Positions 18,248 to 49,200 are shown, numbered from the stretch's first letter. The stretch: 64,000 nt of DNA from Patescibacteria group bacterium (GCA_035530075.1 DATKVM010000009.1:1718-65717); one strand, 5' to 3'. Notes: a model not told the origin generated them from the letters alone. A program made the numbers and translations.

Positions 18248-19228
18248 TCGACGGTTTTAATAAGGAGCAAAATCATCTGTTTGCTTCCCCTAAGGAGGAT
18301 GGTACGCCTGCCCAACCTACCATCCTCCTTACGAAAAGCAAAAACTTCTTAAATTACAATTGAAAAATGGATAACCATAATCAAAGAAAACCAAGGCGAT
18401 AAGGAGCCGAGAAAATTAGGAGGTCTAGAAAAACTAAATTGGGCCATTTTCACTGCTTTATTTCCCTCGAAAACAGTATTGACAATCTTTTTTACTGATG
18501 CTATGGTTTTTCTTAGGATTTAATACCTGTCCTTAAATCCTAAACCTTTTAAGGGCATTACTATTCGTAAGCTTCAAAGAAAACGCAAGACTTAGCGGTA
18601 GTAATGCTCTTTCTTTTATACGACAAATTCCTCTGGTCCCCAGCATCACTCTCTGTCTTAAATATCCTGTCAAAAGGAAGTAAGAATCGGGTAAGGAGTC
18701 TCCTTCAGTTTTTAAGGTGCCTCTCTCAAAACCCAATTCCTCGACCGCCGCTCAAACCGCTCGAGCCGTCATTTTCATTACCACCAACTCTCCCCCCAGA
18801 CGGGAAAGCTCTTGAAGTTGCCTTTTCGCCCACCGGTTTTGCCCAAGACTCTTAGAAACCAACTTCTGGAAAGGCGAAAGCTTCCTTTTCAACAGATTGC
18901 TCAGTCGTCTTTTACTCATATCTATCAGAGCAATATTATTGCCTCTCTTTGACTTTTCAATTCTGGTTATATCACACCCCTTTTGACTCGTCAAGCTTAT
19001 AGTAAACAAACTCCGCAAAACGCCTGCGCTTATAGTATTTACTCTCATATTCTTAGCCTCGTTTTCCCCCATGATAGAAACTTTTAAAGTGAATGTGGAT
19101 AACTTTGGAAAAGGGGTTGACAACATCAATTAAAAGTTCAAAGTGCAAAGTTAAAAGTTAGAAAGCGGAGCAAAAAAATGAAGTAAGGAGATAGAAAACT
19201 TTGAACTTTAAACTGTAATTTTGAATTT

Positions 19229-20608
19229 TTAACTTTGACCTTTTAACTCCCCAACAATTTTTACGGCTTCTCGAAGGCTCTTGATTGTTCCTGAAGACAA
19301 TATCTTGGTAAACCCTAACTTTTTGGCTTCTTTGATCCGCTTCTCTTCTCCGCTAACTCGTCTTATCTCGCCCAAAAGACCAACTTCACCAAAAACACAA
19401 GCTTTGACCGGTAAGGGGGTATTTTTAAAGCTAGAAACAATCGCCAGACAAATCCCCAAATCGGCCGCTGGTTCCGCAATTTTAAAACCGCCGCCGACCT
19501 TGACAAAAATATCCTGATTATAGAGAGGCAAGCCGAGAGTCTTCTGGAGCACAGCCGCCAGCAGCAAAACTCGGTTATAATCAACGCCGGAAACAACTCT
19601 TCGGGGAACCGCTAAGGCGCTTTGAGTGACGAGGGCCTGTATCTCCAAAAGCACCGGTCTAGTCCCCTCCATAGCGCAAACTACCACACTCCCAGGTTGG
19701 TTTTTGGTTTCTTCACCTGCTTCCAAAAACAGTTCGGAGGGATTGGCCACTTCCGTCATCCCCTTCTCTCCCATTCGGAAAACCCCCACCTCGTCAGTCG
19801 GACCAAAACGATTCTTAATCCCCCGAAGCAATCTCAGGTCGGCAAACCGCTCTCCTTCTAAAAAGAGAACTGCGTCAACCATATGTGAGAGTATCATTGG
19901 CCCGGCAATTTCTCCCTCTTTATTGACATGCCCAACCAAAATTGCGGTAATACTGTTCTTTTTGGCAAATTCGAGTAGCTTTTGAGAACACCCGCGCACT
20001 TGAGAAATTGAGCCCGGGCTACCGTCAAAATCCTCTGACCAAAGAGTTTGAATGGAATCAATGATCATAAATATACCCACGGCATCACGAGCGATTTTTC
20101 CCGCTTCTCCTTGGACGAGTAGTCCCTCGGCTACTGCGGCGGCTTCTTCAATAATTCTCTCCACGTTGGTCTCCGGCAAAAGAAGTAAATGACTATTTTC
20201 CGCTCCGGTCCTCTCGGCCCTAAGCTTTACTTGCTCCGGCGATTCCTCGCCACAGATATAAAGGCAAATGGATTCTTTCGGCAGGAATTTAACTAATTGG
20301 AGCAAGAGAGTGCTCTTGCCTACCCCCGGCTCACCCGCCAATAAAACAACTGACCCGGCAATAAAACCTCCTCCGAGCACTCGGTCAAATTCCCCTAGAC
20401 TAGTGGCAATCCGCTGGTTTTTAAATGCCTTTATCTCTGAAAGCTTTATCGGTTTAACCGCTTGTTTCGCGGTCGCTTTAAGCTTTGTTTTTTGGGCCTT
20501 GAATTCCTGCATTGTGTTCCACTGGCCGCAATTAGGACATTTGCCATACCAGCGGGGCGATTCATAACCGCATTGCGAACAAACAAACCAAATTGAAGTT
20601 TTTGCCAT
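19229..20608 (-). CDS. radA: DNA repair protein RadA (Sms)
   Basis: N-terminal zinc finger CSQCGYESPRWYGKCPNC, RecA-like Walker A GEPGVGKST, and a Lon-like C-terminal domain. Confidence 0.9.
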   Translation of the reverse strand: MAKTSIWFVCSQCGYESPRWYGKCPNCGQWNTMQEFKAQKTKLKATAKQAVKPIKLSEIKAFKNQRIATSLGEFDRVLGGGFIAGSVVLLAGEPGVGKSTLLLQLVKFLPKESICLYICGEESPEQVKLRAERTGAENSHLLLLPETNVERIIEEAAAVAEGLLVQGEAGKIARDAVGIFMIIDSIQTLWSEDFDGSPGSISQVRGCSQKLLEFAKKNSITAILVGHVNKEGEIAGPMILSHMVDAVLFLEGERFADLRLLRGIKNRFGPTDEVGVFRMGEKGMTEVANPSELFLEAGEETKNQPGSVVVCAMEGTRPVLLEIQALVTQSALAVPRRVVSGVDYNRVLLLAAVLQKTLGLPLYNQDIFVKVGGGFKIAEPAADLGICLAIVSSFKNTPLPVKACVFGEVGLLGEIRRVSGEEKRIKEAKKLGFTKILSSGTIKSLREAVKIVGELKGQS

Positions 20609-20643
20609 CAGAAGAAATTATACCAAAGTCAGGCTCCTTTGGC

Positions 20644-21222
20644 CTAAGCAGTTACAGCTACACGCGCATAAAGGGAATCTTCAATCGCCTTCTGATTTGA
20701 TTCAACTTTCCTTTTTAATTGGCTAGCTCTTTCCTCTATTAAAAGCTCCGTTATCGAGGTAACTATGACCGCCTCTCCCGGAAGCGGGACTAGGACTAGC
20801 TCCCCTCCCGTGAACCTAAGGCCGTTAGTCGGCACCCGGCCAAATTCGCCCTCAAAAAAAGTCTGAATTTTAGCAAAGCCGTTCCTAAGCCCTTCTATCA
20901 CTTCTAATTTTTTTGGCCTTCCCCTTTCTTCTCGAGCATATTTTAGCCCTTGCCCCTGCTCGGCAGAAATCATCGCCTTAGATGAAGTCGGTTTAATAAT
21001 GCCATCCTCATCGACCATAAATACTCGCTTACTTTTACTTTTCTCTACCACCACTTGGTCGTGGTCGTCTAACTGACCAGGATCCTCAGGGAAATCATAG
21101 CAATAAAAATCTCCCCTCTGCTGTAAATAAAATGGGCCAAAATGATCCGGAAGACTTTTGGCCTCCTCCTTTGAGACGGCCAGGGACGGCTTTATTTCGG
21201 CAGGGCTATCTGGTTCGGGCAT
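20644..21222 (-). CDS. Hypothetical protein
   Basis: 192-aa ORF with no recognisable motif. Confidence 0.45.
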   Translation of the reverse strand: MPEPDSPAEIKPSLAVSKEEAKSLPDHFGPFYLQQRGDFYCYDFPEDPGQLDDHDQVVVEKSKSKRVFMVDEDGIIKPTSSKAMISAEQGQGLKYAREERGRPKKLEVIEGLRNGFAKIQTFFEGEFGRVPTNGLRFTGGELVLVPLPGEAVIVTSITELLIEERASQLKRKVESNQKAIEDSLYARVAVTA

Positions 21223-21330
21223 TTCTCCTCCTTTTTTACTATTTTGTTCATTATAGCAAAAAACCCGAGTTTTTCACTCGGGCTTTTCAGTGACTGCTCA
21301 AGATGGGCAAAGATAAGCACAGTCGAAGGA

Positions 21331-22470
21331 TTATTTATACCCAATCGGCTTCTGGCTCAGAACCAGACCTAGGGAAATCCGGCGACTTTGACGGTCAATT
21401 GATTCAATATAAATATCCACTTTATCGCCCTCATTCAAAGTTACTTCGGGCGGAATTTTGGATATGTGAATCAGGCCTTCGATCCCCGGTTCGATTTCCA
21501 CTAAGGCTCCAAAGGAAGTCAACCGAGTAATTTTACCAGAAAGTTTAGCGTCTGCCGGAAATTTCTTCTCCAATTCTTCCCAAGGGTCGGGCAGCAATTG
21601 CTTAATCGAAAACTGAACCCGACTATCATCAGTGCTGATTACCTTGACTTTTACTTTCTCACCGGCCTTAAAGAGCTTCGTTAAGTCTTCAACCTTTTGC
21701 CAAGAAATTTCCGAAATGTGGACTAAGCCCTCAACTTCCTCTTTGCTCACCAAAATCTTGGCAAAAAGACCGAAAGGCGCTACTTGAGTTATTTCCGCCT
21801 CAAAAGAATCGCCAGTCGCTAACTTTCGGATGGCTTTGGCCGTTCTTTCAATTTTCTCCGCATCGGATATCAATTTTTCAGAGAAAACCAAGCGGTTTTG
21901 CTCACGATTAACTTCAATTACCTTCACTTCCAGTTTACGGCCGACTAATTGGTCCAGTTTCCCCTGCCAAAGAGAACCAATTTGACTCCCGGGGACAAAT
22001 CCCTGAAGTGAGTACGGAGCATCAACAATTAACCCTCCCCGATTAATTTCTCGACCTTTAACTTCGGTCGCAAGTTCACTTTTGAGCATTTCTTCATAGT
22101 TATTCCAAGCAAAATCAACCGCTGCCTGGCGCAAGGAAAGAAGAATTTGACCTTTTTCATTCTCGGTGCTCCCGACATAAACCTTGACCGCATCGCCGAC
22201 TTTCAGATTTTTAACAAAGTCTTTAGCTCTCTCGAATTCCTTACCCAAAACTACACCGTCGGTTTTGGCCCCGACATCGATAAAAATACTTTTGGGAGTA
22301 ATTTCGGAAACGACCCCATCAATAATTTCACCTCTTTTCAAGCCTCGGATTTTGTCGCCTCCTAAGGCCAAAAGTTCCTCCATCGTAGTCGGTTCCTTAA
22401 CGGCAGCTGGCGAAGAATTCTCTTTAGTTTTTGTTTCTTTTTTAATTTTTGTTACTTTTGCTTTCGTCAA
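21331..22470 (-). CDS. rpsA: 30S ribosomal protein S1 (four S1 domains)
   Basis: Repeated S1 OB-fold modules (GxV...G.F). Confidence 0.85.
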   Translation of the reverse strand: MTKAKVTKIKKETKTKENSSPAAVKEPTTMEELLALGGDKIRGLKRGEIIDGVVSEITPKSIFIDVGAKTDGVVLGKEFERAKDFVKNLKVGDAVKVYVGSTENEKGQILLSLRQAAVDFAWNNYEEMLKSELATEVKGREINRGGLIVDAPYSLQGFVPGSQIGSLWQGKLDQLVGRKLEVKVIEVNREQNRLVFSEKLISDAEKIERTAKAIRKLATGDSFEAEITQVAPFGLFAKILVSKEEVEGLVHISEISWQKVEDLTKLFKAGEKVKVKVISTDDSRVQFSIKQLLPDPWEELEKKFPADAKLSGKITRLTSFGALVEIEPGIEGLIHISKIPPEVTLNEGDKVDIYIESIDRQSRRISLGLVLSQKPIGYK

Positions 22471-22584
22471 TGTAATAAATCCACCTTTCTTTATAATTTT
22501 GCTTAGAATCTACGGTTGACTGTGTCTACCGCTATCATTTTACCACTTAAGCCGTAGTCCGTAGACCAAAAGCTCCAAGCTGTG

Positions 22585-22726
22585 ATTTTGTGCTTGAGTC
22601 CCCCGGCCTTGACCTATTTTGGCTCGTAAGAGACAAATCAAGCTTTGCTTATTTGCACTCCACCGATAGGCAGATAGCTTTTTCAAGCCTATTTTGTGCT
22701 TGAGTCCCCCGGCCTTGACCTATTTT
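22585..22726. repeat. 36-bp direct repeat: the 3'-terminal segment of 5S rRNA duplicated about 70 bp downstream
   Basis: ATTTTGTGCTTGAGTCCCCCGGCCTTGACCTATTTT occurs at 22585-22620 and at 22691-22726. Confidence 0.7.
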
Positions 22727-22840
22727 CACAATCGCTTGCGCAATTACTATCGTCGGCGCTGAGGTGTTTGACGACTCTGTTCGGAATGGAGAGAGGTAGT
22801 GCCACCTCGCTTCAAAGACCGAAAGGCTCAAACACAAAAT
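22693..22840 (-). rRNA. rrf: 5S rRNA (ends approximate; about 25-30 nt longer than typical)
   Basis: Reverse complement contains CCATTCCGAACAGAGTCGTCAAACACCTCAGCGCCGACGATAGTAATTGCG (loop C / helix IV-V core). Terminal helix TTTGTGTTTGAGCC pairs with GGACTCAAGCACAAA. Confidence 0.6.
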
Positions 22841-22904
22841 ATTATTTTAATTTTGCACCCTGGAAAGTGAAGAGAAAGTTTGATATATACCACCCCGAAG
22901 GATG

Positions 22905-25968
<3,064 letters not shown>

Positions 25969-26195
25969 AATTTGTTGTTATCCTCCTAAATTCGCTCTTC
26001 GAGCCGCAGTAGAAATCTACTAAGGCGAGAAGTAAGAATAGGAGGACGACCTATGCATCAAATTTCTCTTCACTTTTCAAAGTACATTTCCCTACTTTCG
26101 TAAGGGGTGGACCAGGGCGGTACTGACCCGCCTACCTTCTCATTGCAAATGAGACATTCTACCGTTGAACTACTGGCCCTCAACTTTATCTAAGC

Positions 26196-26240
26196 TAAGA
26201 CCCTAATAAAAACAAAAACTGGCTCGGAAGCCAGTTGCTT
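26196..26240 (-). terminator. Intrinsic terminator after the metallophosphoesterase gene (CTGGCTTCCGAGCCAG plus TTTTTGTTTTT)
   Basis: Hairpin plus U-run read on the minus strand, about 170 nt downstream of the CDS stop and upstream of the 23S 5' end. Confidence 0.5.
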
Positions 26241-26406
26241 TAAGGCCCTGAGAAGCTATTTATCCCTGTCCACGACAAAACGGAACGGAAAGGTAATCGT
26301 TTAGTTTTTGGCTTCTCATGAATTAGCTTTACTGTCTCCCGAACTAGAGTCTACGAAGCATTATACTCAAAAAAGGCCTCGTCTGTCAAGATCGCCCCAG
26401 CCTGTT

Positions 26407-27237
26407 TTAATCGTTCAGAAAAACTTCTTTTTTGTCTAACTCTTTCCCTTTCCAAATGACTTCCAGATATTTCGGTGACTGGGGATTGCGGTTGCCCGCA
26501 ATGGCGCCAATTACTGTTGTCCGCAGCCCCTCCAGCTCATAACTAGCAAAGAAGTGCAAATGCCCCGCAAAAACTTCCCTTACTTTATTTTCCGTCAATA
26601 CCTTCACCCACTCTTTCACCTCCAGCACCACCGTTGGATTCTCCTCGCCCATAATATGCCAAGAGCGGGGGTGATTAAGAGGCATATGCATAAAAACTAA
26701 ACAGCTTATCTGCCAACATTCGGCTACTTCAGCCCGCAACCAATCACCTTGGTTCTGGCCGTCTTCACCCATAAGAGCATTTATCCCCAAATAACTGCCA
26801 TTATCCGCCAAGATGAATTTAAAGTCATTTTTTTTAAAAGATTGAAAATCCGGCCCAAAAACCTCCCAAAAGAGATTCGCTTTTGGGGGATTGCTCGACC
26901 AAAAGTCATGATTGCCGGGAATGGCGTAATATTTAAGCCCGCTTTCATCTAAAACTTTTTTCATCGCTAAAAGCTCCTCTTTTTTCCCCAAGGAAGTTAA
27001 ATCGCCAACAATAATGACGAAATCGTCATTATTGGTTTTGGCCTTTTCTAAGGCGACGGCAAAATTCTCCGCATCGGAATGGACATCTCCCATAACGGCA
27101 AACTTAAGCGGTTTTACTGTTGGGGCAGACGGGGAAGAGGGAAAAAAGAAGCGTTTTATTTCTGTTTGACGGAAAAGGCTAATCCAAACCAAGCCGCCAA
27201 TGACTGCCAGGAAAAGAAGGCGCCTAAAAAACCTCAT
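26407..27237 (-). CDS. Calcineurin-like metallophosphoesterase with an N-terminal signal/TM
   Basis: Motifs GDVH, GDL, GNHD and GHLH. Located inside the 16S-23S spacer. Confidence 0.75.
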   Translation of the reverse strand: MRFFRRLLFLAVIGGLVWISLFRQTEIKRFFFPSSPSAPTVKPLKFAVMGDVHSDAENFAVALEKAKTNNDDFVIIVGDLTSLGKKEELLAMKKVLDESGLKYYAIPGNHDFWSSNPPKANLFWEVFGPDFQSFKKNDFKFILADNGSYLGINALMGEDGQNQGDWLRAEVAECWQISCLVFMHMPLNHPRSWHIMGEENPTVVLEVKEWVKVLTENKVREVFAGHLHFFASYELEGLRTTVIGAIAGNRNPQSPKYLEVIWKGKELDKKEVFLND

Positions 27238-27309
27238 GAAGTTATTTTAACAAAAAATACCAGAGCCGGTTGAATGAGGCTAATATATATGTTAAAATTT
27301 CATATTATT

Positions 27310-27383
27310 GGACGCATAGCTCAGTTGGTTAGAGCGCGTCTCTGATAAAGACGAGGTCCTTGGTTCGACTCCAAGTGCGTCCA
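27310..27383 (+). tRNA. tRNA-Ile (anticodon GAU)
   Basis: Cloverleaf: GGACGCA acceptor, D-arm TAGCTCAGTTGGTTAGAGC, anticodon loop CUGAUAA, T-arm GGTTCGACTCC. Plus strand, opposite to the rRNAs. No CCA is encoded. Confidence 0.85.
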
Positions 27384-27384
27384 C

Positions 27385-27948
27385 TTATTTTGGTTCTTCT
27401 CTTTTATATCTAGCTTCAATACTGCGTGTAAGTTTCAACTGTTCCTCGTCAGTCATTAAACTTAACCCTAATTCTTTCGCCACTTCCCGAATTTTTTCCT
27501 CCGCTTCACTCTTTTCTTCCGAATTGTTAATCACCACCTCCAGCTCTGCGTGATATCCCCAATCTTCACTATGCTTAACCGCAATTTCCACCCCTTTATA
27601 CAAAAAATTGTGTCTTTTTTGGCCGTTGTAAATCATTTGTCCTGGTAGGTGCAAGGCCAGAAATAATTGAGCTAGCCGGTCAACTTCATCAATATGTAAA
27701 GGAATCTCCATTTCTTCCCAATCAAGTTTTTGACCAATTCGACCCAGTTTTAAAACAATCTTGCCCGTTCCTTTGGAAATATTTTTAACCACCTTAAGCA
27801 GCTTGTCTTTGAAGATAAAAAAGTAGGTGTCTTTGTCATCCTCACCTAAATCTTCGGCATTTTTACTTAAAAAAGCCATCAATTCTTGGTGTTTTTCCCC
27901 ATTAAAAAGGGAACGAAATTCAATTTCTATGTTTTTATGCATGGACAT
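27385..27948 (-). CDS. CYTH-domain protein (CyaB/thiamine-triphosphatase-like)
   Basis: N-terminal EIEFRSLF (the EXEXK-type CYTH signature), with acidic/basic residue spacing typical of triphosphate tunnel enzymes. Sits in the 16S-23S spacer and abuts the tRNA-Ile. Confidence 0.55.
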   Translation of the reverse strand: MSMHKNIEIEFRSLFNGEKHQELMAFLSKNAEDLGEDDKDTYFFIFKDKLLKVVKNISKGTGKIVLKLGRIGQKLDWEEMEIPLHIDEVDRLAQLFLALHLPGQMIYNGQKRHNFLYKGVEIAVKHSEDWGYHAELEVVINNSEEKSEAEEKIREVAKELGLSLMTDEEQLKLTRSIEARYKREEPK

Positions 27949-28154
27949 AGTATACCTCCAATAGCTCTAATTGCCCAAATTCGGCCAATTATTCCACCAA
28001 AAAGCCCCGGATCTCTCCGGGGCCTCGACCTTGACCTTCAAAAAGTGGTAGGAAGCTCACCGAATATGACTTTTTTCCGGCAATAGCTTTTTTATGTCAG
28101 CTTAAGACAGCTTTGTTTAGTCCGACTTACGTCGGACAGCGTTTTTTCTCCTTA

Positions 28155-29655
<1,501 letters not shown>

Positions 29656-29946
29656 AAAAAAAATTGATTTTACTCAATTTAAAAAGTTCCTACCACTTTT
29701 TGAATGTCAAAGTACCGTAGCACTTTGATCCTCCAGCAAACGCTCCTTGAGTCCTCCGAATCGGAGGACAAAAGGTAAGTTGCAGAGGGTCAAGTACCTT
29801 GAAAGATATCCTCCTTACCTTAGCACTCGGCTTTTCAGAACTATTTGAGTGAAACTCAATCAAGCTCTGCTTATTCGTTCACGCCTCGGGCTGCGGTTAT
29901 CGGCGGATGATGTGCTACTAGATTTTGAAAAAACTAGATAAATATC

Positions 29947-29968
29947 AAAAAACCCGCCAAGTAGCGGG
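29947..29968 (-). terminator. Terminator-like hairpin (CCCGC-TACTTG-GCGGG plus U6 on the minus strand), downstream of the SpoU methyltransferase gene
   Basis: GGGAATGACCCGCTACTTGGCGGGTTTTTT on the minus strand. Shares the motif AAAAAACCC(C)GCCAAG with the hairpin at 3344-3366. Confidence 0.5.
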
Positions 29969-30049
29969 TCATTCCCAAGACTCTTGGCAAAGTTCTTATG
30001 ACATATCTAAACACAGAATATCAAAATCTGAAACCAAAGTCAATAGCCT

Positions 30050-30583
30050 TCAGCCTAAATCTTCTACAATCTGGTAAAGCACAATTGCCAGGGAAACCAT
30101 CACATTCAAACTTTTGTTCACTCCCCACATGGGAATTTCCACAATCTGATCCGCCATATCTAAAACTTCTTTTGAAACACCTGTTGTCTCATTCCCTACT
30201 ACCAAGGCTACCGGAAACTCCCATTTCATTTCGGTGTAAGGAATACTTTTAGGATTTTGCTCTATTGCCACCACTTTTGATTTTGGTTCTTTCTCCCTAA
30301 GCTCCATAAGAGCCTTAAGGGCCGTATCTTTATAACTCCACTTGACCCACTCAGTGGTATTAATGGAAGCTTTTTTAATTCGCGTATGCGGCGGTGTCTC
30401 GGACTGGCCGGTGATAATTACTTCTTCTGCCGCCACTGCGTCCGCTAACCGAAAAATACTCCCAATATTATAAGTATCCAAAATATTATCCAGGATGATA
30501 TAAATCGGATTTTTCGGTATCAGTTTGGCTTTCTCGGGGTCGACCTTAGCCGCCCGTAACTCCTGGGCATTGAGCTTAAACAT
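30050..30583 (-). CDS. SpoU-family (TrmH/TrmL-like) RNA 2'-O-methyltransferase
   Basis: SPOUT motifs: NIGSIFRLADA, and the GNETTGVS...EIPMWG...SLNV knot region. Confidence 0.75.
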   Translation of the reverse strand: MFKLNAQELRAAKVDPEKAKLIPKNPIYIILDNILDTYNIGSIFRLADAVAAEEVIITGQSETPPHTRIKKASINTTEWVKWSYKDTALKALMELREKEPKSKVVAIEQNPKSIPYTEMKWEFPVALVVGNETTGVSKEVLDMADQIVEIPMWGVNKSLNVMVSLAIVLYQIVEDLG

Positions 30584-30610
30584 GAGGAGATTTTAGCACA
30601 AGGAAGGGCT

Positions 30611-31186
30611 TTAGGGAATTTGGGCTGTGCTTTCCTGCACTTTGGCACAAACAGTCGTGGGTTTACCCTCAGTTAATTTGCATAAAATAGCGGTTAGGGC
30701 CTGCTCTTCCAATTTCTTGGATTCTTCTTCGGTACTACCTAAATTTTCACCCGCTCCCATCCGGGCATATTTACCCCCAAGAATTAAGAAGGGAACATAA
30801 CCGGGATTAATATCGGCGTAGCGATTAAAAACTTCTGCGTCCGCTTCCGAGTCAAAGTTTTCGTGATAGACAATCTGGTCCTTAAATTGGTCAAAGACTT
30901 TCTTGGCAATCGGTTTCTCCCAAACGCAGTGAGGACAAGTACTGGAGCCAAAAAAGTAAACTGCCGGCTTACCATTTTCCTTTTCGATTTCTTTATCCGT
31001 TACCAAAAAATCGCCAACGGTTTTAGGATAATCAGGGGTCGGCTGAGCAGTTGGCGCTAATGAAGGCGCCGCGCTTGAACCCTCAACTCGATTGGTTTTT
31101 AAAAGACTATTCTTCGTCCAAAAAAAGCCGGCACCGGCAACGCCCAAAACTAAAATGAGGATAACTACAGTCTTAAAGATTTTCAT
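30611..31186 (-). CDS. Membrane-anchored thioredoxin-like thiol-disulfide oxidoreductase (CPHC)
   Basis: CPHC active site, an N-terminal TM helix, and an AGGAGA RBS before MKIFKTVV. The ORF track extends to 31267, but that part overlaps the upstream gene. Confidence 0.65.
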   Translation of the reverse strand: MKIFKTVVILILVLGVAGAGFFWTKNSLLKTNRVEGSSAAPSLAPTAQPTPDYPKTVGDFLVTDKEIEKENGKPAVYFFGSSTCPHCVWEKPIAKKVFDQFKDQIVYHENFDSEADAEVFNRYADINPGYVPFLILGGKYARMGAGENLGSTEEESKKLEEQALTAILCKLTEGKPTTVCAKVQESTAQIP

Positions 31187-31223
31187 TTCTCCTATCTTAA
31201 TCACTCCTCCCCTTCTTGTCAAC

Positions 31224-32156
31224 CTAATTCCCACAACCACTAGTGCTGGCGGCGGACTCTTGACCAAGAGTTTGACTGCATTCCAAAGGCAGCTCGTTAA
31301 ATGAAGAACAAATCGCTTTTTTCAAATCTTCCGGCGCTCGGCCACCCTGATATAAAACCTCGTTAATATAAAAGGTCGGTGAACCGGTAGCTCGATACTT
31401 CGTTACTTCGGCGACTTCTTTAGCTAAAAGACTTTTTGCTTGAGATTGACTACAAGATAGAATTCTCCCGGTATTAAAACCGACCGTTTCCGCCTGAGCC
31501 GTCCAACAAATATCGGCGTTATCGCTATTACAGTTTTGGTTCACCAAATCAACAAACTTCCACCACTTATCAAGGGCGTTAGCGGCCGAAGATAGCTGGG
31601 TTTCGGCAAAGGCGCAAATTTCTCTGATATCTTGATGCAGTTCCTGATCGCCATGAAGCGATTCGTACTTGCCGGCAGTGAGCTTAGCACATTCCTTACT
31701 TAAACATTCTTCCGTCGAAGTGTAAGGAAAATATCCCTTACAAGTATCCACATCCCCAACTTGTCCTTGCGCCACCGCATCTTCACATCTTTTCTTAGCG
31801 TTATCATCGTAAACACGGTGGGGACAGTTTTGCTCACAGGAAGCCTTTTGATCAGCAACGATATATTGCGGCTGCCAAGAAACCTTGTCTTTCAAAAGCT
31901 GATAAACCGGCTCCAACCCCGCCTCTGCCTGATTACCATAAGGACAAAAACTCATCACAAAAAATTTCACTTCCGGCTTATCCGTTTTCTTTGGCTCAAA
32001 GGGAGGAAGAGTCGGCTGAGCCGCCGGCGCGGTCGAGGCCAGTTTTTCTCCTTCTTCTTTATTATCAAAATATTTTATTTTGGCGGCCGTTGAGCCCGCC
32101 AGAAAAGCGGCAATTAAAAGGAGAAAAATAATTAAAACAGAAGTTCTTTTTTCCAT
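31224..32156 (-). CDS. Exported DsbA-like thioredoxin-fold protein (CPYG) with an extra Cys-rich region
   Basis: Signal/TM at the N-terminus, SFCPYGNQ CxxC motif, and a C-terminal PTFYINE motif typical of DsbA. Confidence 0.6.
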   Translation of the reverse strand: MEKRTSVLIIFLLLIAAFLAGSTAAKIKYFDNKEEGEKLASTAPAAQPTLPPFEPKKTDKPEVKFFVMSFCPYGNQAEAGLEPVYQLLKDKVSWQPQYIVADQKASCEQNCPHRVYDDNAKKRCEDAVAQGQVGDVDTCKGYFPYTSTEECLSKECAKLTAGKYESLHGDQELHQDIREICAFAETQLSSAANALDKWWKFVDLVNQNCNSDNADICWTAQAETVGFNTGRILSCSQSQAKSLLAKEVAEVTKYRATGSPTFYINEVLYQGGRAPEDLKKAICSSFNELPLECSQTLGQESAASTSGCGN

Positions 32157-32167
32157 TTTTTAAATTT

Positions 32168-32356: not shown

Positions 32357-32369
32357 CTTGCCTCTTAAT

Positions 32370-33662
32370 TTACATCCCTTTTGCTACCCTGTCAACCGCC
32401 AGAATATAGGCTGCTTTACGCAAATCAACGTTTCTTTGCTCTCCCATCTTCCAAACATCCTCAAAAGCTTTAATCATCTTTGCTTTTAACCTTTCGTTCA
32501 CCCCTCTCACTTCTTTACCCGCCGTAACTTTAGTGAAGGCGGGCCACTTTTCATCCTTTACGTTTTGTTCCCATTCAAAAAAGGAAACGGTCACTCCGCC
32601 AGCATTGGCAAGAATATCGGGAACAACTATCACCTTTCTCTTAAGCAAAATATCATCGGCTTCCGGCGTTGTTGGGCCGTTGGCCATCTCAATTATTACT
32701 TTCGCTTTAATTTTTTTCGCGTTTTTCGCGTCAATTACATTTTCTAAAGCTGCCGGGGCTAGAATATCACAATTAGCAATTAGTAATTCGCAATTAGTAA
32801 TTGTCTCCGTTCCCGGAAAACCGACAACGCTTCCCGTCTTTTCTTTCCATGCCAAAACTTCTTTTGGATTCAAACTTTTAACTTTTAATTTTGAATTTTG
32901 AACTAATTCGATCCCGCCCTTTGAATCCGACAAAGCCACAATTTTGTAACCCTGTTCATAAGCTAACTGGGCAAAGAAATAGCCAACATTTCCTATCCCC
33001 TGAATCGCAATTTTGGCCTTTTTAATTTTCAATTTTTTAATTAATTCATTCAAAATATAAACCCCGCCCCGGCCGGTTGCTTCGGTGCGGCCGAGACTTC
33101 CCCCCTTTTCCACTGGCTTTCCAGTAAACGCGGCCAAGAATTCTTTCTTTTCAACTTTGAACTTTGAACTTTGAACTTTGAACTTTTTATACTCTTCAAT
33201 CATCCAGGCCATTTCTCTCGCCCCTGTTCCAACGTCCGGTGCCGGCACATCAATCTCCGAACCAATTAGGGGGGTAATCGCTCGGATATAAGCCCGCGAC
33301 AACCGTTCCAGCTCCTTTTCCGAAAGCTCCTTGGGATTAACGGCCACTCCCCCTTTGGCGCCACCAAAGGGAATTCCTGCCACCGCGCATTTCCAAGTCA
33401 TCCACATTGAAAGCGCCATTACTTCCTCTTTGCTCACCGCTGGGTGAAAACGAATTCCTCCTTTGTAAGGACCGCGGGCATTATTGTGCTGGGAGCGAAA
33501 ACCGCGAAAAATTCTAATTTCACCGTTATCCATTTTTACCGGAAGACTAACTTCTAAAACTTTCTGCGGTTCTCTTAAAATTGCCAGAACATCGGGCCGA
33601 ATATCCAAATATTTAGCGACCTTATCAAGTTGTTCCTGGGCATTTTGAAAAGGATTGGACAT
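32370..33662 (-). CDS. gdhA: Glutamate dehydrogenase (Glu/Leu/Phe/Val dehydrogenase family)
   Basis: GGAKGG catalytic-lysine region and NAD(P) Rossmann GIGNVGYF. Carries two in-frame heptamer-repeat insertions. Confidence 0.9.
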   Translation of the reverse strand: MSNPFQNAQEQLDKVAKYLDIRPDVLAILREPQKVLEVSLPVKMDNGEIRIFRGFRSQHNNARGPYKGGIRFHPAVSKEEVMALSMWMTWKCAVAGIPFGGAKGGVAVNPKELSEKELERLSRAYIRAITPLIGSEIDVPAPDVGTGAREMAWMIEEYKKFKVQSSKFKVEKKEFLAAFTGKPVEKGGSLGRTEATGRGGVYILNELIKKLKIKKAKIAIQGIGNVGYFFAQLAYEQGYKIVALSDSKGGIELVQNSKLKVKSLNPKEVLAWKEKTGSVVGFPGTETITNCELLIANCDILAPAALENVIDAKNAKKIKAKVIIEMANGPTTPEADDILLKRKVIVVPDILANAGGVTVSFFEWEQNVKDEKWPAFTKVTAGKEVRGVNERLKAKMIKAFEDVWKMGEQRNVDLRKAAYILAVDRVAKGM

Positions 33663-33676
33663 GACTTTTCCCGACT

Positions 33677-34618: not shown

Positions 34619-34718
34619 AGTTTAGAATTCAAAGCCCAAAGTTTTTGTAGGATACCAATAACCGTAACTTTTAACTGCTAACTGTGACTTTGAATTTTGC
34701 CCTTTGAACTTTGAACTA

Positions 34719-35157: not shown

Positions 35158-35895
35158 TTATTTACCGATATTGGTTTCTGATTGATGGCAGAAGACGACG
35201 CCTTTTTCCAAGAGGGCTTGCTTTTGCTGAGTAGAAAGGATGGTGGAAGCAGTAATGGGATGAAGCTGGCTTTTGTCAATCATTTTGCGCAAACTCTCTT
35301 CCTCCGGGTAATCCCAAGAAGTGACTCTCATCCCGACGCAAAGAGCATAGGCTCTTGCCTCTTGAGTAAGCTTAGTATTAGTTATTAGCCAAGGAATATC
35401 AAAACCCTTATTTTTAACATCTAAAAACCGAGCATAAGTATAGAGGGCAACTTTGACATCGGTCCGGCCTCCAACCTGTCCATGAAATTTACATTCAATC
35501 ATATAGGCCTTATCATTCTTGGCGATAATATCGATTTCATGGGCAACACATTTGCCCGTTACCAATTGGTTAATCTGCACCCGATAGTTTTGTACCTTTA
35601 AAACCTCAGCTACATATTTTTCAAAGGGATAGCCGGATGGCCCCAATTCCATAATGGCTCTTTTCAGATTATATTTTTCGGCCAAACCCCGCTGCTCTTT
35701 TTTTAGTCGCTTCATTACCAGGGCATAAATTTCAAAAGTGGGAATGTTTGGGTAAAGATGAGGCTTAACTTGGGAAACAATTTTTTGAGCCAATTCAGCC
35801 GATGCCCCTGCCCGCAAAAGTGAGTTAATTACTTTTTCTTCGGCAAATGGCTCTACTTCTCCCGTCGCTTTAATAACATCGACCGTTTTTCCCAT
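35158..35895 (-). CDS. ATP-cone domain fused to an Mrr/restriction-endonuclease-like (PD-(D/E)xK) domain
   Basis: N-terminal ATP-cone pattern VIKATGEVEPFAEEKVINSL. C-terminal EIDIIAK...ECKF resembles a D-ExK nuclease core. Confidence 0.55.
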   Translation of the reverse strand: MGKTVDVIKATGEVEPFAEEKVINSLLRAGASAELAQKIVSQVKPHLYPNIPTFEIYALVMKRLKKEQRGLAEKYNLKRAIMELGPSGYPFEKYVAEVLKVQNYRVQINQLVTGKCVAHEIDIIAKNDKAYMIECKFHGQVGGRTDVKVALYTYARFLDVKNKGFDIPWLITNTKLTQEARAYALCVGMRVTSWDYPEEESLRKMIDKSQLHPITASTILSTQQKQALLEKGVVFCHQSETNIGK

Positions 35896-35904
35896 CTTCC
35901 AACC

Positions 35905-36450
35905 TTAGGCCAGCAAGACCGTCAGGGCTAAAAAGATAACCGTAACTAAAAATAAGTAAAGCGGAAGGTACTCCTTTCCCAAACCTTTAATCTGCCAAAA
36001 TAGCCAATCCGCTAAAGCTTCTCTTCTCCCTCGCCACCAGTCAAACCATTCATCCTTAAGAAGGTGCAAATTCATAGCAACGACTAAGCCGGCCCCAAAC
36101 AAACTATTAGAAGCCGTCAGGACATAAAAGGCCAAAAGCAATAAAATTGCCTGGAAAGTTGCGCTATGAAAAATTAAGCGATTGTGGCCTTCATGAGTTT
36201 GCTTTAAAAGCGAATAAAGTCCTCGATAGTTCCTCACTTTCAAAAGCACCCTGGCCCTTACCGACTCTTCTGCCTCCGGTTGGGTCCAGAACCAAAAAAG
36301 AAAATGGTCAATATCGAGCAAGAAGGTCCCACTCAAAGCCCCCAACCAAAGCCAAACAAGGTTCAGGTTAAACTCACTTCTTAATAAGGAAACGGCGGCA
36401 AAATAGATAAAAGTTAAAAGCAAATGAAAGAAGACCCCACTGCCAAGCAT
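35905..36450 (-). CDS. Hypothetical integral membrane protein
   Basis: Several hydrophobic helices. No motifs. Confidence 0.5.
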   Translation of the reverse strand: MLGSGVFFHLLLTFIYFAAVSLLRSEFNLNLVWLWLGALSGTFLLDIDHFLFWFWTQPEAEESVRARVLLKVRNYRGLYSLLKQTHEGHNRLIFHSATFQAILLLLAFYVLTASNSLFGAGLVVAMNLHLLKDEWFDWWRGRREALADWLFWQIKGLGKEYLPLYLFLVTVIFLALTVLLA

Positions 36451-45940: not shown

Positions 45941-45944
45941 ATAT

Positions 45945-47368: not shown

Positions 47369-47421
47369 GGCTTTTTTCTTACAGCAACTGGATTAAGGAT
47401 ATCGAAAATTAAAAAGAAAAG

Positions 47422-49200
47422 CTACTCTTTCCCGGCTCCAAATTGCAATTGATAAAGTTTCTCTACCTCCTTTACCGTCGTCGCATCTTGGGGAGAGCGG
47501 TCATCTCGAAATCGAACTAACCGCGGAAAGCGGAGCGCCAAACTGACAGTATGAATCGGGCTTTTGGTAATATTGTCGGCTTGGATTTCCACCACAATCG
47601 CCGGCCTGACCCAGCTGTCAGGAGTTAAATTCTTGTCAACCTCGTATTCGGCCGGTCGACTTTGAACTTTGAACTTTGAACTTCTAACTTTTATCTCCTG
47701 CCATTGCTCATCGGTAAGCCCGGTGCCGATTTTAGAAACGGTATTAAACTTTTCCCCTTGCCGCACCCCGACCAAAAAAGCCCCGACCCCAAACCCAGCC
47801 CGCTTGCCTCGACCACGATAAGTGCCCATAATGACACAATCAATGGTATCGGCCAAACCCCCACCCTTTTTCGTTTCTTCCTGTTTATATTTGACCCAAG
47901 AGAAACCTCTTCTCCCGGCTTCATAAGGAGCGTTAGCCTTTTTGACCATTGCCCCTTCTAAACCCTTTTTAATTTGCTCTTTATGAAACTCTCTCATTTC
48001 TTCCGGACGATCAGCTACCACTTGCGGGGAAATAATTAAAACGTTCGGTTTCGCTGGGAGAATCTTCTCCAAAATTTTTCTTCTTTCCAAAAGCGGTGAA
48101 GGAAGCAGGCTTTTGCCATCTTTATAGAGAATATCAAAGACAAAACACCTTAACGGAATTTCTTTGGCGGTCGCTTCAATCCCGTGTTTTCTTTTGCGCT
48201 TAATTGTTTCTTGGAAGGGTAAGAAACGCCCCGTTTTAGGATCAATACCAACGCCCTCACTGTCTAAAATCGCTTCCTCGGCCTTAACTTCTTTCTCAAC
48301 CGCTTCGGCAATATCGGGAAACATCGCGGTCACATTTTCCAAATTACGAGTAAAAATGCGTACTTCCGTTTCTTTTTTATAGCGCTTTAAGTGAATCTGC
48401 AGGCGGGTGCCGTCATATTTGGGCTCCATTACCACCATCCCCATCTTTTCCAGCATTTCTTCCACCGTTCCCAAACGCTGAGCGAGCGCCGGTAAAATTG
48501 GGGTGCCAACGACCGGCTTAGTATCTTTAACTCCTTTCGCTCCCGCCTCTTTCACTCGTTTGGCAATCGCCCCAATATCCGCCCGAACATTAAAGGCGGC
48601 CTCGAGCTCCGGCCGCAAACTTTTGTTACCACTCTCCATCCACGAAAGAGCGTCTAAAACAGTCAAATCGGAAAAGCCCAACCGCAATTTGCCCAAAGGA
48701 ACGCGAATAACATACCTGACAGATAAAGCATCCAAGTCTTCCAGCAAGGTAGCCATCTTCTCAATTTTCCGCTCAACACTTCCCGTTCCGGCTTCCTTGG
48801 CAATCGTTAAAAGGCGCTCAAAAACTTCATTAACGGAGAGCTTGACATCAGACTTCTTTTCTTTCACAAAAAGTCGGTTTTGAATTTTTCCCCCGCCGCC
48901 TTTTTTCTTTAATTCCTCCCCCACCGTTCCTAAATCCCCTACCTGCTTATACTCTTTTTGCACCAGCGAATTCTCCACGCCAAAAGCTTTAGCAACTGCC
49001 CGAATTATCATCTTCTCCGCCATTTGGAACTCCAAACCCTCATAAGGCGGCACGAGCATCCCCAAAGAAAGATAAGTAATCTTCTCGACTTCCTCCGCTC
49101 GGCTTTTTTTAAAAAGTTGAGCGAGAATTTCCGTTATCTTTAAACGGGCACTCGTCTGTTCCAGCAGCTGAAAGTAGTTAGCTAATTCTTGGAAGGTCAT
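47422..49200 (-). CDS. ATP-dependent DNA ligase
   Basis: Adenylation motif I MEPKYDGTRLQIH (KxDG), nucleotidyltransferase and OB domains. Contains an in-frame heptamer-repeat insertion (KVRSSKFKVQS). Confidence 0.85.
   Translation of the reverse strand: MTFQELANYFQLLEQTSARLKITEILAQLFKKSRAEEVEKITYLSLGMLVPPYEGLEFQMAEKMIIRAVAKAFGVENSLVQKEYKQVGDLGTVGEELKKKGGGGKIQNRLFVKEKKSDVKLSVNEVFERLLTIAKEAGTGSVERKIEKMATLLEDLDALSVRYVIRVPLGKLRLGFSDLTVLDALSWMESGNKSLRPELEAAFNVRADIGAIAKRVKEAGAKGVKDTKPVVGTPILPALAQRLGTVEEMLEKMGMVVMEPKYDGTRLQIHLKRYKKETEVRIFTRNLENVTAMFPDIAEAVEKEVKAEEAILDSEGVGIDPKTGRFLPFQETIKRKRKHGIEATAKEIPLRCFVFDILYKDGKSLLPSPLLERRKILEKILPAKPNVLIISPQVVADRPEEMREFHKEQIKKGLEGAMVKKANAPYEAGRRGFSWVKYKQEETKKGGGLADTIDCVIMGTYRGRGKRAGFGVGAFLVGVRQGEKFNTVSKIGTGLTDEQWQEIKVRSSKFKVQSRPAEYEVDKNLTPDSWVRPAIVVEIQADNITKSPIHTVSLALRFPRLVRFRDDRSPQDATTVKEVEKLYQLQFGAGKE

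Follow-up and report, generated by a model that had tools for sequence, protein, structure and literature searches.

A single heptanucleotide, GTTCAAA (= CAAAGTT), recurs in tandem arrays at six loci of the 64,000-nucleotide stretch of Patescibacteria DNA analyzed here (the window). These loci are probably copies of one lineage-specific family of short tandem heptanucleotide repeats, seeded and afterwards remodelled, and a CPR counterpart of heptamers known from other bacteria. Patescibacteria (CPR) are tiny-celled bacteria, and the family is a new example of genome-specific heptanucleotide repeats in this group (Microgenomates-like). It is best read as the CPR case of the known, poorly understood bacterial heptamer repeats and not as a classical transposon. 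The family takes two forms. One is a foldback hairpin, (GTTCAAA)n-loop-(TTTGAAC)n, which fills intergenic spacers and here also sits on the tip of 23S rRNA helix H10; the other is an unpaired arm within an ORF, always oriented so that the sense strand reads CAAAGTT. Hairpins are present at three loci (at the 3' end of radA, between trxA and trxB, and at the H10 tip), and single arms at the other three, all in ORFs: two in the glutamate dehydrogenase (GDH) gene and one in the ligase gene (Table 1).

Table 1. Repeat tracts and their host genes in the window.
Feature	Position	Strand	Details
Hairpin locus 1 (radA), left arm	19133..19159	.	AAAGTTCAAAGTGCAAAGTTAAAAGTT; CAAAGTT sense on + strand
Hairpin locus 1, loop	19160..19196	.	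37 nt; unrelated to other hairpin loops
Hairpin locus 1, right arm	19197..19248	.	Degenerate (AACTTTG)n, 7.6 units
23S rRNA (bacterial), host gene	22909..25975	-	3067 nt vs 2925 in the model
23S insertion	25693..25813	-	121 nt; arms 25703-25729 and 25777-25808
GDH, host gene	32370..33662	-	430 aa
GDH single-arm tract 1	32873..32904	-	Encodes VQNSKLKVKSLN; loop after strand 250-253
GDH single-arm tract 2	33149..33186	-	5.4 near-perfect units encoding KKFKVQSSKFKVE
Hairpin locus 5 (trx), left arm	34628..34643	.	16 nt; TTCAAAGCCCAAAGTT; 9 nt upstream of trxB start codon
Hairpin locus 5, right arm	34687..34717	.	ACTTTGAATTTTGCCCTTTGAACTTTGAACT; starts 2 nt after trxA stop codon
ATP-dependent DNA ligase, host gene	47422..49200	-	592 aa
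Ligase single-arm tract	47659..47691	-	Encodes KVRSSKFKVQS

The pattern AACTTTGAACTTTG, with up to 2 mismatches, has 24 matches in the 64-kb window versus 1.29 expected and a maximum of 5 in shuffled sequence, and all of them fall within 19132-47685. TRF places period-7 arrays at each of the six loci, which span 28.5 kb, and a periodic-match census of the 64 kb yielded eight tracts (both arms at radA and in 23S, both GDH tracts, the right trx arm, and the ligase tract) with no further CAAAGTT tract. Only one other period-7 array in the window exceeds the minimum TRF score, CAATTAG at 32770; within these 64 kb, the extent on which unit dominance is judged, one tandem 7-nt unit is amplified at many unlinked loci and other heptamers are not. 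In departure from the mostly intergenic placement of heptameric SSRs, three of the six loci lie in coding sequences and one in the 23S rRNA gene. A sequence-only reading of the window had proposed one dispersed (CAAAGTT)n/(AACTTTG)n family; its loci (exactly six), their coordinates, the genes assigned (23S, GDH, ligase, radA, trxB, and trxA), and the peptides quoted for the coding tracts were all confirmed. The peptide SSKFKVQS that it noted in two unrelated enzymes is not an independent coincidence, because a 7-nt period gives the cyclic heptapeptide QSSKFKV in all three frames. Coding tracts always have CAAAGTT in the sense strand, the sole stop-free orientation, because every frame of the opposite one contains TGA. 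The three hairpin loops are mutually unrelated in sequence, and arm lengths are unequal (27 versus 52 nt at radA and 16 versus 31 nt at trx).

The element at radA had been described as lying downstream of the gene with inverted arms; the arms are inverted, but the radA 3' end is inside the right arm, which contains the last six codons (ELKGQS) and the stop codon. In strain L199, 3 of 15 SNPs fall within this element (19176, 19201, and 19202). The other intergenic hairpin occupies the whole trxA-trxB spacer, and its arms are inverted as claimed, although the left one has merely 16 nt. On the mRNA strand, folding of both hairpins is weak (z -0.1 for radA and -1.5 for trx). The trx hairpin is absent in two syntenic relatives, L195 and L004, with spacers of 8 and 27 nt, respectively; it is a lineage-specific gain.

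In the 23S rRNA gene, the insertion replaces the ~6-nt apical loop of H10 at Rfam LSU model positions 151-178 (E. coli ~150-176), in agreement with the H9/H10 region proposed earlier. It contains a central CUGCC-UUAC-GGCAG hairpin at 25754-25767. This hairpin had been called GNRA capped, but since the gene sits on the minus strand, the rRNA tetraloop is UUAC, and the GTAA that was read is its complement. Folding energy is -50.2 kcal/mol (z -7.2) on the rRNA strand and -23.1 kcal/mol (z -1.9) on the complement strand, an advantage that arises through G·U pairs; the two intergenic hairpins (radA and trx) have no comparable sense-strand advantage. The far greater stability on the rRNA strand argues that the hairpin is maintained as RNA. 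Its arms may later have evolved under RNA-level selection (G·U pairs), in which case the transcript would contain the copy either as an expansion segment or as an intervening sequence of the RNase III type, as we propose. A group I/II intron or homing-endonuclease insertion was rejected, as the insert has 121 nt and no ORF; Rfam searches of the whole window at the gathering threshold returned only rRNA and tRNA families and no intron fold. A long, stable stem-loop replacing the tip of a surface helix is shared with bacterial 23S IVSs and expansion segments (Pei et al. 2009, PMC2672173; PMC2441807). The H10 tip is an insertion-tolerant site overlapping eukaryotic ES4L, and E. coli tolerates an insertion there (Yokoyama and Suzuki 2008, PMC2441807). 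Insertions in rRNA are frequent in CPR bacteria and are mostly described as introns of 0.5-5 kb (Tsurumaki et al. 2022, PMC9297842), whereas this one is 121 nt long, lacks an Rfam intron signature, and is made of the genome's heptamer repeat.

Each GDH site adds 7 aa (21 nt, 3 units) relative to the archaeal Thermococcus GDH, and pLDDT falls to 66 and 72 at the two sites. In the predicted structure, both tracts sit in hypervariable, low-confidence surface loops, which supports the tolerance suggested for them. GDH orthologues differ in length at both sites in 7-aa steps: the Chisholmbacteria orthologue P0089 has QNSKRKMQSNNSKLKSLN at the tract 1 site and is 7 aa longer there. A distant CPR GDH (L004/P0027) carries tract 2 at the matching site, and at these hot spots further CPR GDHs have peptides encoded by different heptamers, KNQKSKI = (AAAAATC)n and KSQKSKV = (AAAAGTC)n.

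The ligase tract does not behave as the insertion it was taken for. All 40 aligned CPR ligase orthologues are equal in length at the tract segment, with a consensus like ELKKRSxKLKVKEKP, which argues that native codons were replaced or converted and not added to. Identical residues in orthologues from unrelated taxa had been named as evidence that would speak against lineage-specific insertion, and this is partly what was found, because the distant ligase orthologues P0144, P0154, and P0146 carry KVQSSKFKV at the matching place. Alignment of orthologues upholds the insertion claim for GDH, with its 7-aa steps, and not for the ligase. A further locus, L197, encodes the ligase peptide with synonymous departures from the repeat (AGC TCG versus AGT TCA). 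Given the peptide, the perfect codon periodicity of the window's tract has a chance of ~1 in 13,800, by arithmetic assuming equal codon use.

In L195, the closest relative (94% identity in a 16S fragment), tracts of the AAAGTTA type occupy other loci, namely an ATPase gene, SpoU (with no length change), and 16S helix h6 (a repeat-armed insertion); its GDH gene and trx spacer have no heptamer tract. Beyond this relative, many phyla as well as phages contain the CAAAGTT unit, with a strict arm order in 40/40 pairs at bacterial loci and 13/13 at viral loci. Across 120 unit-carrying loci from many phyla, 388 tandem arrays have period 7, compared with 46 for period 6 and 82 for period 8, and 158 different period-7 units are present. 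Single-arm tracts lie inside ORFs of at least 150 aa in 68 of 114 cases across phyla. Tract boundaries, outer as well as inner, do not fall at random phases: of the exact runs, 71% begin in one of three neighbouring phases around GTTC, and 34% finish with ...GTT. For most of 39 hairpins, ORF ends lie no more than ~15 nt from the arms, likewise in phage tail operons, and gene 3' ends are not enriched (15 tandem, 6 divergent, and 4 convergent contexts). Phage contigs L128 and L150 each contain four 80-nt copies of the form (GTTCAAN)4 - CCTCTCTTTCCCC loop - (NTTGAAC)4, and the loop is conserved among them, which looks like copy-and-paste of a whole element.

These features can be accommodated if the tracts exist at the DNA level as sequence that is, in essence, selfish or neutral. 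Seeding would be unit specific, either by insertion of a preformed tract or by ectopic or templated conversion of partly similar sequence, and remodelling would proceed by frame-keeping slippage (3 units = 21 nt = 7 aa) and by misalignment-templated homogenisation. Selection would decide only where tracts survive: flexible surface loops of GDH, intercistronic spacers, an rRNA helix tip on the ribosome surface and, in the ligase, a native Lys/Ser-rich linker overwritten without length change. Anatomy, distribution, the orientation rule, the 7-aa steps, the constant ligase length, and the strand-dependent stability of the 23S hairpin are direct observations; we infer the seeding and conversion steps as well as the absence of function. 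Pure slippage is insufficient, because one unit occupies six unlinked loci and the arm order is strict (40:0 and 13:0). The non-random boundary phase, the 80-nt phage copies, and the lack of copy-number polymorphism between strains count against the seeded-family explanation itself.

An origin of the tracts from misassembly or chimeras in low-complexity sequence, a general risk of metagenome assemblies and especially of rRNA, has a negligible probability, since identical tracts are present in assemblies of other samples. L001-L003 match window positions 26394-36012, both GDH tracts included, at 99.95% identity with no indel, and L003 additionally spans the trx hairpin; L198-L203 span the radA hairpin, and L198 and L199 also reach across the 23S insertion, within which they show no difference; for the ligase, a protein record of 100% identity exists on a separate JGI contig (the P0121 contig). 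Tracts are thus real, and up to six independent metagenome assemblies reproduce them at unchanged length; moreover, the ORFs stay intact, and pairing in the 23S hairpin is compensated. The tracts had also been thought slippage prone, which does not hold at strain level: no copy-number change was found in independent assemblies of strains at 99.5-99.98% identity, so slippage must be slow at 4-5 units. Unit number does vary between GDH orthologues of different CPR lineages, by 7 aa (3 units). It is highly improbable that the tracts are ordinary microsatellites, each expanded in place from a chance seed through nothing more than replication slippage and without any dispersal or conversion process. 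Period 7 is the most frequent among long prokaryotic SSRs, a slippage mechanism based on the polymerase footprint has been put forward (PMC4679880, PMC4692102), and control heptamers of the same composition also form 3-unit viral arrays (10 and 22 stretches versus 38 for CAAAGTT); yet one unit is found at all six loci and at other loci in relatives, CAATTAG forms the sole other period-7 array above the minimum score in the window, the arm order is strict, and strains show no length polymorphism.

We also regard as unlikely a non-autonomous foldback element (MITE/REPIN-like) mobilised in trans, whose transposed unit would be the hairpin and whose decayed or half copies would be the single arms. 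Such an element would fit the hairpin architecture and strict polarity (40:0 bacterial and 13:0 viral), the preferred boundary phase, the occupation of non-orthologous sites in close relatives, and the conserved-loop copies in L128 and L150, the only contigs with a shared internal sequence. A single-strand-specific Y1 (IS200/RAYT-like) transposase, a candidate source of mobility, is encoded at 15331-16065, 3 kb from the first hairpin, and Y1 transposition proceeds without target-site duplication, consistent with flanking direct repeats of 52 hairpins being no longer than in shuffled flank pairs. However, the hairpins on either side of the Y1 gene are its own, TTCCAC-N7-GTGGAA, unrelated to the heptamer and present only at those two places; no heptamer tract adjoins the gene in the periodic census, and its protein has an NCBIfam RAYT score of 54.7, below the cut-off of 80. 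A REP/REPIN-RAYT system was rejected on these flanks, which are not the dispersed hairpin; such systems (Bertels and Rainey 2011, PMC3116915) likewise have short extragenic hairpins and a Y1 gene with inverted flanking hairpins, and they differ in being extragenic and not built of tandem units. Nor does the label "MITE-like" given earlier fit: the hairpins in the window have neither a shared internal sequence nor defined terminal inverted repeats, and their arms are unequal; target-site duplications are not in excess across the 52 hairpins, every second copy is an unpaired arm within an ORF, and the tracts in the ligase and in the L195 SpoU bring no length change. Rickettsia palindromic elements, reportedly described by Ogata and colleagues in 2000 as conserved sequences of 100-150 bp inserted whole, are similarly tolerated in frame at surface positions of essential proteins and in RNA genes. 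Here, only single arms are in ORFs, there is no conserved core, and the ligase gains no length; a whole palindrome in frame was discarded, as the complementary arm has TGA in all frames. A selected role of the hairpins as RNA elements, with coding tracts as by-products, seems improbable. They might act between cistrons as stabilisers or sites of processing, resemble terminators, or offer arrayed 7-nt sites to cold-shock-type single-strand-binding proteins, and they do fill spacers between adjacent ORFs almost exactly (most of 39, and in phage tail operons); the 23S copy persists as a helix at the RNA level. The T-rich arm, CTTTG, also resembles the heptamer preference reported for CspB. CSP binding with one protein per heptamer is discussed in PMC4679880. 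Against such a role stand the lack of enrichment at gene 3' ends, the weak mRNA-strand folding at radA and trx, the missing trx hairpin in both syntenic relatives, and the SNPs gathered by the radA element.

A lineage-specific heptamer family has close parallels elsewhere. Cyanobacterial STRRs are reportedly short tandemly repeated repetitive heptanucleotides (Mazel and colleagues, 1990), and their arms are said to lengthen helix P12 of RNase P RNA (Vioque, 1997). Like the family described here, they have a 7-nt unit, one or few units amplified per genome, dispersed copies, and complementary arrays that extend a structural-RNA helix; they differ in unit and phylum, half of the CPR copies are in ORFs, and the structural RNA is 23S rRNA (16S in L195) instead of RNase P RNA. 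We know of no function or enzyme for STRRs or for the CPR family. STRRs in Calothrix are mentioned in PMC4692102. More generally, heptamers outnumber every other long SSR class in prokaryotes, with one heptamer amplified per genome; they cross phyla without a known mechanism, and their few ORF copies are in translatable orientation (PMC4679880; PMC4692102). TAACTGA direct repeats of marine Beggiatoaceae, cyanobacteria, and Bacteroidetes (MacGregor 2015, PMC4679880) are alike in that a single heptamer is amplified and related ones are not, in their cross-phylum occurrence with no evident transfer mechanism, and in few in-ORF arrays, only translatable in orientation, with a 7-aa periodic peptide. 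Most of these arrays are direct repeats placed immediately ahead of start codons, and only one inverted pair is reported, whereas inverted pairs are common in the CAAAGTT family. GGGAATC / GGGGA(T/C)T heptamers of Xanthomonas and Nostoc (Rehm et al. 2015, PMC4692102) are also dispersed, with some inverted pairs able to form stem-loops, many copies abutting or overlapping stop codons as at radA here, and conserved positions with varying lengths between related species; unlike ours, they are G rich, quadruplex forming, and nearly all intergenic.

Smaller hairpins are associated with the GDH tracts. The window GDH has a 26-30-nt GC-stem hairpin inserted in frame, and tract 2 of the L004 GDH is split by a 21-nt GC-rich mini-hairpin, CATGCCTGTGGGCAGGCAGG; with only two here, mini-hairpins are not significant within the window. 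The nesting of a mini-hairpin in another repeat in the L004 GDH recalls the small dispersed repeats (SDR) of Nostoc, which Elhai and colleagues reportedly described in 2008 as 21-27 nt long and nested in other repeats.

A search of the window for AACTTTGAACTTTG with at most two mismatches returned 24 matches spanning 19132-47685, compared with an expectation of 1.29 and a maximum of 5 in shuffled sequences, and TRF called period-7 arrays at each locus named by the sequence-only reading. Pattern search, TRF, and a census of periodic matches agree on the positions of these six loci, and the census found no further tract outside them in the 64 kb. The gene identities assigned by that reading (radA, 23S rRNA, glutamate dehydrogenase [GDH], trxB, trxA, and ligase) also proved correct; the public gene call for radA starts elsewhere than the window ORF. 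The source genome is a Patescibacteria (CPR) MAG, and the relatives of its ligase carry the label Microgenomates.

Features of the window discussed here, in window positions
Feature	Position	Strand	Remark
radA	19229-20608	minus	ORF
23S rRNA, bacterial	22909-25975	minus	Rfam; 16S, 5S, and three tRNAs nearby
GDH	32370-33662	minus	ORF
trxB	33677-34618	minus	ORF
trxA	34719-35027	minus	ORF
ATP-dependent ligase, archaeal-type	47422-49200	minus	ORF
Foldback hairpin, radA	19133-19248		right arm includes radA stop codon and last six codons
Foldback hairpin, 23S	25693-25813		within 23S gene
Foldback hairpin, trx	34628-34717		occupies trxA-trxB spacer, from 2 nt after trxA stop to 9 nt before trxB start codon
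Single arms in GDH	32873-32904, 33149-33186		within ORF
Single arm in ligase	47659-47691		within ORF
Y1 (IS200-like) transposase, 244 aa	15331-16065	minus	Pfam Y1_Tnp, E = 8e-11
Inverted hairpins TTCCAC-N7-GTGGAA flanking Y1	15293-15311, 16112-16130		plus inverted pair GACACCTCGGGA / TCCCGAGGTGTC

The three foldback hairpins have the order (CAAAGTT)n-loop-(AACTTTG)n, with degenerate arms of unequal length and loops of 37, 47, and 43 nt that have no sequence in common. The single arms within ORFs read CAAAGTT in the mRNA in 3/3 cases, an orientation that is forced, since (AACTTTG)n has TGA in all three frames. Because 7 and 3 have no common factor, each frame of (CAAAGTT)n gives the same cyclic peptide, QSSKFKV. 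Thus, the peptide previously pointed out in two unrelated enzymes is present in both, but its sharing is automatic for a 7-nt unit.

The tracts reappear in contigs whose assembly from other samples was independent, which rules out an assembly artefact. Three of them (L001 to L003) match window 26394-36012 at 99.95% identity without indel and cover both GDH tracts, L003 also the trx hairpin; six others (L198 to L203) match 10644-28924 at 99.5-99.98% identity and all cover the radA hairpin. The 23S insertion is covered by L198 and L199, with zero differences within it, and an identical record of the ligase protein was found on a separate contig. No tract changes its unit number across these independent assemblies; at the level of strains, the suggested slippage proneness is not seen. 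SNPs cluster in or near the elements: 3/15 SNPs of L199 fall within the 116-nt radA hairpin, and among five distinct SNP positions in L001 to L003, one lies in the trx loop and one 5 nt off a GDH tract.

Two relatives were compared: L195, the closest (GDH 73% identical, 16S fragment 94%), and L004, more distant (16S 87-91% identical). L195 has a trx spacer of 8 nt and L004 one of 27 nt, so the trx hairpin is a gain in the lineage of the window. L195 has no tract in GDH or the trx spacer; it carries AAAGTTA-type tracts in SpoU and an ATPase gene, plus a repeat-armed insertion in 16S helix h6. The family is therefore common to the lineage, while the occupied sites differ. Perfect repeats are retained between lineages whose GDHs are only 62% identical.

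The GDH tracts are loop insertions, as the sequence-only reading proposed. Each site is 7 aa (21 nt, 3 units) longer than in Thermococcus GDH, and in an AlphaFold model with mean pLDDT of 91, the score falls to 66 at residues 161-170 and 72 at 251-260, in mostly non-regular segments. Both sites are hypervariable among 30 CPR GDH orthologues and hold other repeat-encoded peptides, such as KNQKSKIKNQKSKI from (AAAAATC)n, KSQKSKVKSQK from (AAAAGTC)n, and, in a Chisholmbacteria protein, QNSKRKMQSNNSKLKSLN, which is 7 aa longer than the window sequence. The L004 GDH has a GTTCAAA tract at the same site as the window, interrupted by a 21-nt GC-rich mini-hairpin. The ligase tract had likewise been taken for an insertion, but its segment has equal length in 40/40 aligned orthologues, with a consensus like ELKKRSxKLKVKEKP, and several distant orthologues read KVQSSKFKV themselves; L197 codes this peptide with AGC TCG instead of AGT TCA. 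The constant length indicates that native codons were replaced or converted and none added. The SpoU tract of L195 is similar, with AKLKVKSPKLKV encoded by (AAGTTAA)4.7 and no length change relative to two orthologues.

Other features were seen in GDH. A third lineage-specific insertion, at 32518-32543 (codons ~373-386), adds 10 aa (PAFTKVTAGK...), forms a small beta-hairpin in the GDH model, and is coded by a GC-stem mini-hairpin, CCCGCC-N14-GGCGGG; L195 and L004 are without it, and similar segments, 'PAFAKASAGK' and 'HACGQAG', occur in other CPR GDHs. Its core GCCGTAA is also found in the hairpin at the centre of the 23S insert, but GC-rich mini-hairpins of the form C[CT]GCCGTAA do not constitute a dispersed family (2 copies versus 0.7 expected, not significant). 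At 32770-32802, a period-7 array, (CAATTAG)4.7, codes TITNCELLIANCD with unchanged length where orthologues have TITNEELLELDCD; here too, heptamer periodicity may have been imposed on native codons, or the array may be due to chance. Several CPR GDHs (P0027, at L004:2790-2890, and P0017, P0020, P0031, and P0069) have at one site a ~34-aa in-frame insertion, KSKYRNPKQYQNSNDKNSKQDFEFHASNFVLPQS, whose coding sequence is a palindromic element that has arms of (AAATCCG)n type and also TTCGAATTTC(A/G)TGC repeats. Rickettsia RPEs lie in frame within proteins, and this insertion is nearer to them, its frame being open through both arms.

Mapped onto the secondary structure by cmscan alignment, the 121-nt 23S insert takes the place of a ~6-nt loop in the hairpin spanning model positions 151-178, which is E. 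coli helix H10 (nt ~150-176). The insert was compared with L198 and L199; the contigs of L195 and L004 stop in or before the rRNA operon. Yokoyama and Suzuki list functional insertion I3 (149-157) at H10, overlapping eukaryotic ES4L (PMC2441807). On the rRNA strand, the insert folds into one long helix (-50.2 kcal/mol, z = -7.2), compared with only -23.1 kcal/mol (z = -1.9) for the complementary strand. This gap is due to many G·U pairs, so pairing is kept at the RNA level; neither intergenic hairpin (radA, trx) has such a sense-strand advantage. The central tetraloop of the insert is UUAC in the rRNA, and the GNRA cap attributed to it earlier (GTAA) belongs to the opposite strand. The hairpin may either stay in the rRNA or be excised by RNase III. 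The 16S helix h6 has a tip insertion in L195 (14135-14263, roughly 110 nt) and L004 (7045-7221, 157 nt), not in the window. In L195 its arms are AAAGTTAT x3.6 and AACTTTACA-type; it is a repeat-armed hairpin like the H10 insert, but in a different rRNA and helix. Insertions are frequent in CPR rRNA genes and mostly taken as introns (PMC9297842). The rRNA genes of the window (22707-29661) lie outside the standard operon arrangement: a CYTH-like gene, a metallophosphoesterase gene, and an opposite-strand tRNA-Ile part 16S (28156-29661) from 23S, and tRNA-Ala is directly upstream of 23S.

How widely is the unit distributed? A scan for (CAAAGTT)3 with one genome per species found at least 120 stretches, while by our own arithmetic chance alone would give ~0.3 for a 21-mer over 596 Gb. 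The matches listed come from Acidobacteriota (many Pyrinomonadaceae), Verrucomicrobiota, Bacteroidota, Planctomycetota, Chloroflexota, Cyanobacteria, Desulfobacterota, Levy-, Chisholm-, and Gottesmanbacteria, and Saccharibacteria, with cultured isolates among the hosts. Period 7 dominates the tandem repeats in the matches listed (388 arrays, versus 46 with period 6 and 82 with period 8; 158 different units). Close inverted pairs among these listed matches have the order (GTTCAAA)n-loop-(TTTGAAC)n in 40/40 cases and the reverse in 0, with unrelated loops of 6-127 nt, and tract boundaries in the same listed matches favor certain phases. Hairpins in the matches listed fill inter-ORF spacers irrespective of gene orientation (15 tandem, 6 divergent, 4 convergent); convergent gene ends are not enriched, arguing against terminator-like placement. 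Hairpins of other heptamers do not generally have a stop-free 5' arm; they show only a tendency to A-rich 5' arms. Among unpaired tracts listed, 68/114 fall within ORFs of 150 aa or longer and run in the CAAAGTT sense, one example being the 'WIGRSEGAFV-EFKVQSSKFKV-E' protein of four Pyrinomonadaceae MAGs. In these MAGs, which stem from different studies (L033, L069, L108, and L118), (E/K)FKVQSSKFKV has one and the same place in a large protein, after WIGRSEGAFV; the protein may be a leucyl-tRNA synthetase.

Viral contigs hold 38 stretches of the CAAAGTT unit, whereas two control heptamers matched in composition give 10 and 22. The controls are about 2-4 times rarer yet present; therefore, the unit is common rather than unique among heptamers. 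All viral inverted pairs (13/13) have the same polarity as the bacterial loci. Two related IMG/VR phage contigs, L128 and L150, have structural operons that encode tail tube, tape-measure, and tail protein Z. Each contains four 80-nt copies of (GTTCAAN)4-conserved CCTCTCTTTCCCC-type loop-(NTTGAAC)4, and in L150, for which gene positions were checked, each copy sits in an intercistronic spacer. The loop of this phage hairpin is found in both orientations.

A literature search for the tract and for the peptide found no relevant paper. The repeat class is already known: the repeats of the window belong, as a CPR member, to the heptameric-repeat (STRR-type) class. Cyanobacterial STRR heptamers extend helix P12 of RNase P RNA. 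Beggiatoaceae, cyanobacteria, and Bacteroidetes all have TAACTGA repeats, although no mechanism of transfer is evident, and ten of the arrays lie within ORFs in translatable orientation (PMC4679880); GGGAATC repeats of Xanthomonas form inverted pairs and stop-codon-overlapping arrays (PMC4692102). Among long SSRs, heptanucleotides are the commonest in most prokaryotic genomes, with polymerase-footprint slippage suggested as the cause (Mrázek 2007, as cited in PMC4679880 and PMC4692102).

A unit-specific seeding or conversion process is needed, because one unit occupies unlinked loci, the ligase and SpoU tracts entail no length change, and perfect repeats persist across such divergent GDHs. Once such a process had generated the copies, in-frame slippage in 7-aa steps and selective filtering would shape them. 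Simple slippage does not account for the strict polarity of the hairpins, the phase of the boundaries, or the copies in phages, and these three features lead to the bolder reading given below. The proposal of a MITE-like element finds no support in its classical form: target-site duplications show no excess over control among the matches listed, loops are unrelated, and arms are unequal. Mobilization of the hairpins by a Y1/RAYT-like transposase is kept as a rival, since a gene of this kind is located in the window, but the hairpins bordering it are unrelated to the heptamer. Neither placement nor folding nor conservation supports a regulatory role as RNA, structural maintenance in 23S rRNA excepted.

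Beyond seeding or conversion in general, we consider it unlikely that a dedicated unit-specific activity, also phage-borne, makes or spreads GTTCAAA-type foldback hairpins. One candidate would be an enzyme copying or adding GTTCAAA repeats to DNA 3' ends; acting on both sides of a break, it would produce the invariant order (GTTCAAA)n-loop-(TTTGAAC)n. If true, it would explain why one heptamer recurs, at fixed polarity and in a preferred phase, in Acidobacteriota, Verrucomicrobiota, Bacteroidota, Planctomycetota, Cyanobacteria, CPR, and phages, as well as in-frame (QSSKFKV)n peptides in many unrelated proteins.

The origin, inter-phylum spread, and function of heptanucleotide repeats lack explanation, and the present locus, from a minimal CPR genome, offers a compact and well-controlled case. 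One unit appears in three guises: intergenic hairpin, rRNA helix extension under RNA-level selection, and in-frame segment of essential enzymes, in one of which it replaced native codons with length kept. Strict polarity in all pairs examined, cross-phylum and phage occurrence, and 7-aa steps at the GDH hot spots make the mechanism more testable. In practical terms, the tracts lengthen CPR proteins and rRNAs, fake "shared motifs" in unrelated proteins, and may mislead alignment or annotation.

Several other features of the window deserve mention. The Y1 gene scores 54.7 bits against the NCBIfam REP-associated tyrosine transposase model, below the cut-off of 80, and no further TTCCAC-N7-GTGGAA copies occur in the window. 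Between a radical-SAM gene and radA, 18128-19228 is a 1.1-kb stretch without convincing ORF (public calls give only a 98-aa ORF), unusually long for a compact CPR genome; an undescribed ncRNA or the remnant of a gene could lie there. The radA hairpin as part of an ncRNA there was rejected, with no credible Rfam match at E <= 1 and no tmRNA. At 21315, just after an S1-domain gene, a 26-nt strain indel, CAGGATTGTAATCCTTCGACTGTGCT, is present in 5/6 other assemblies and missing from the window and L201; it is a near-tandem duplication of TAATCCTTCGACTGTGCT with 8-nt filler and includes the palindrome AGGATT-GT-AATCCT. GC skew on the plus strand is strongly and uniformly negative over the whole window (about -0.15, to -0.24), and long ORFs in the 17-49.5 kb examined are mostly on the minus strand; a similar strand disparity has reportedly been found in a study of a complete Microgenomates genome.
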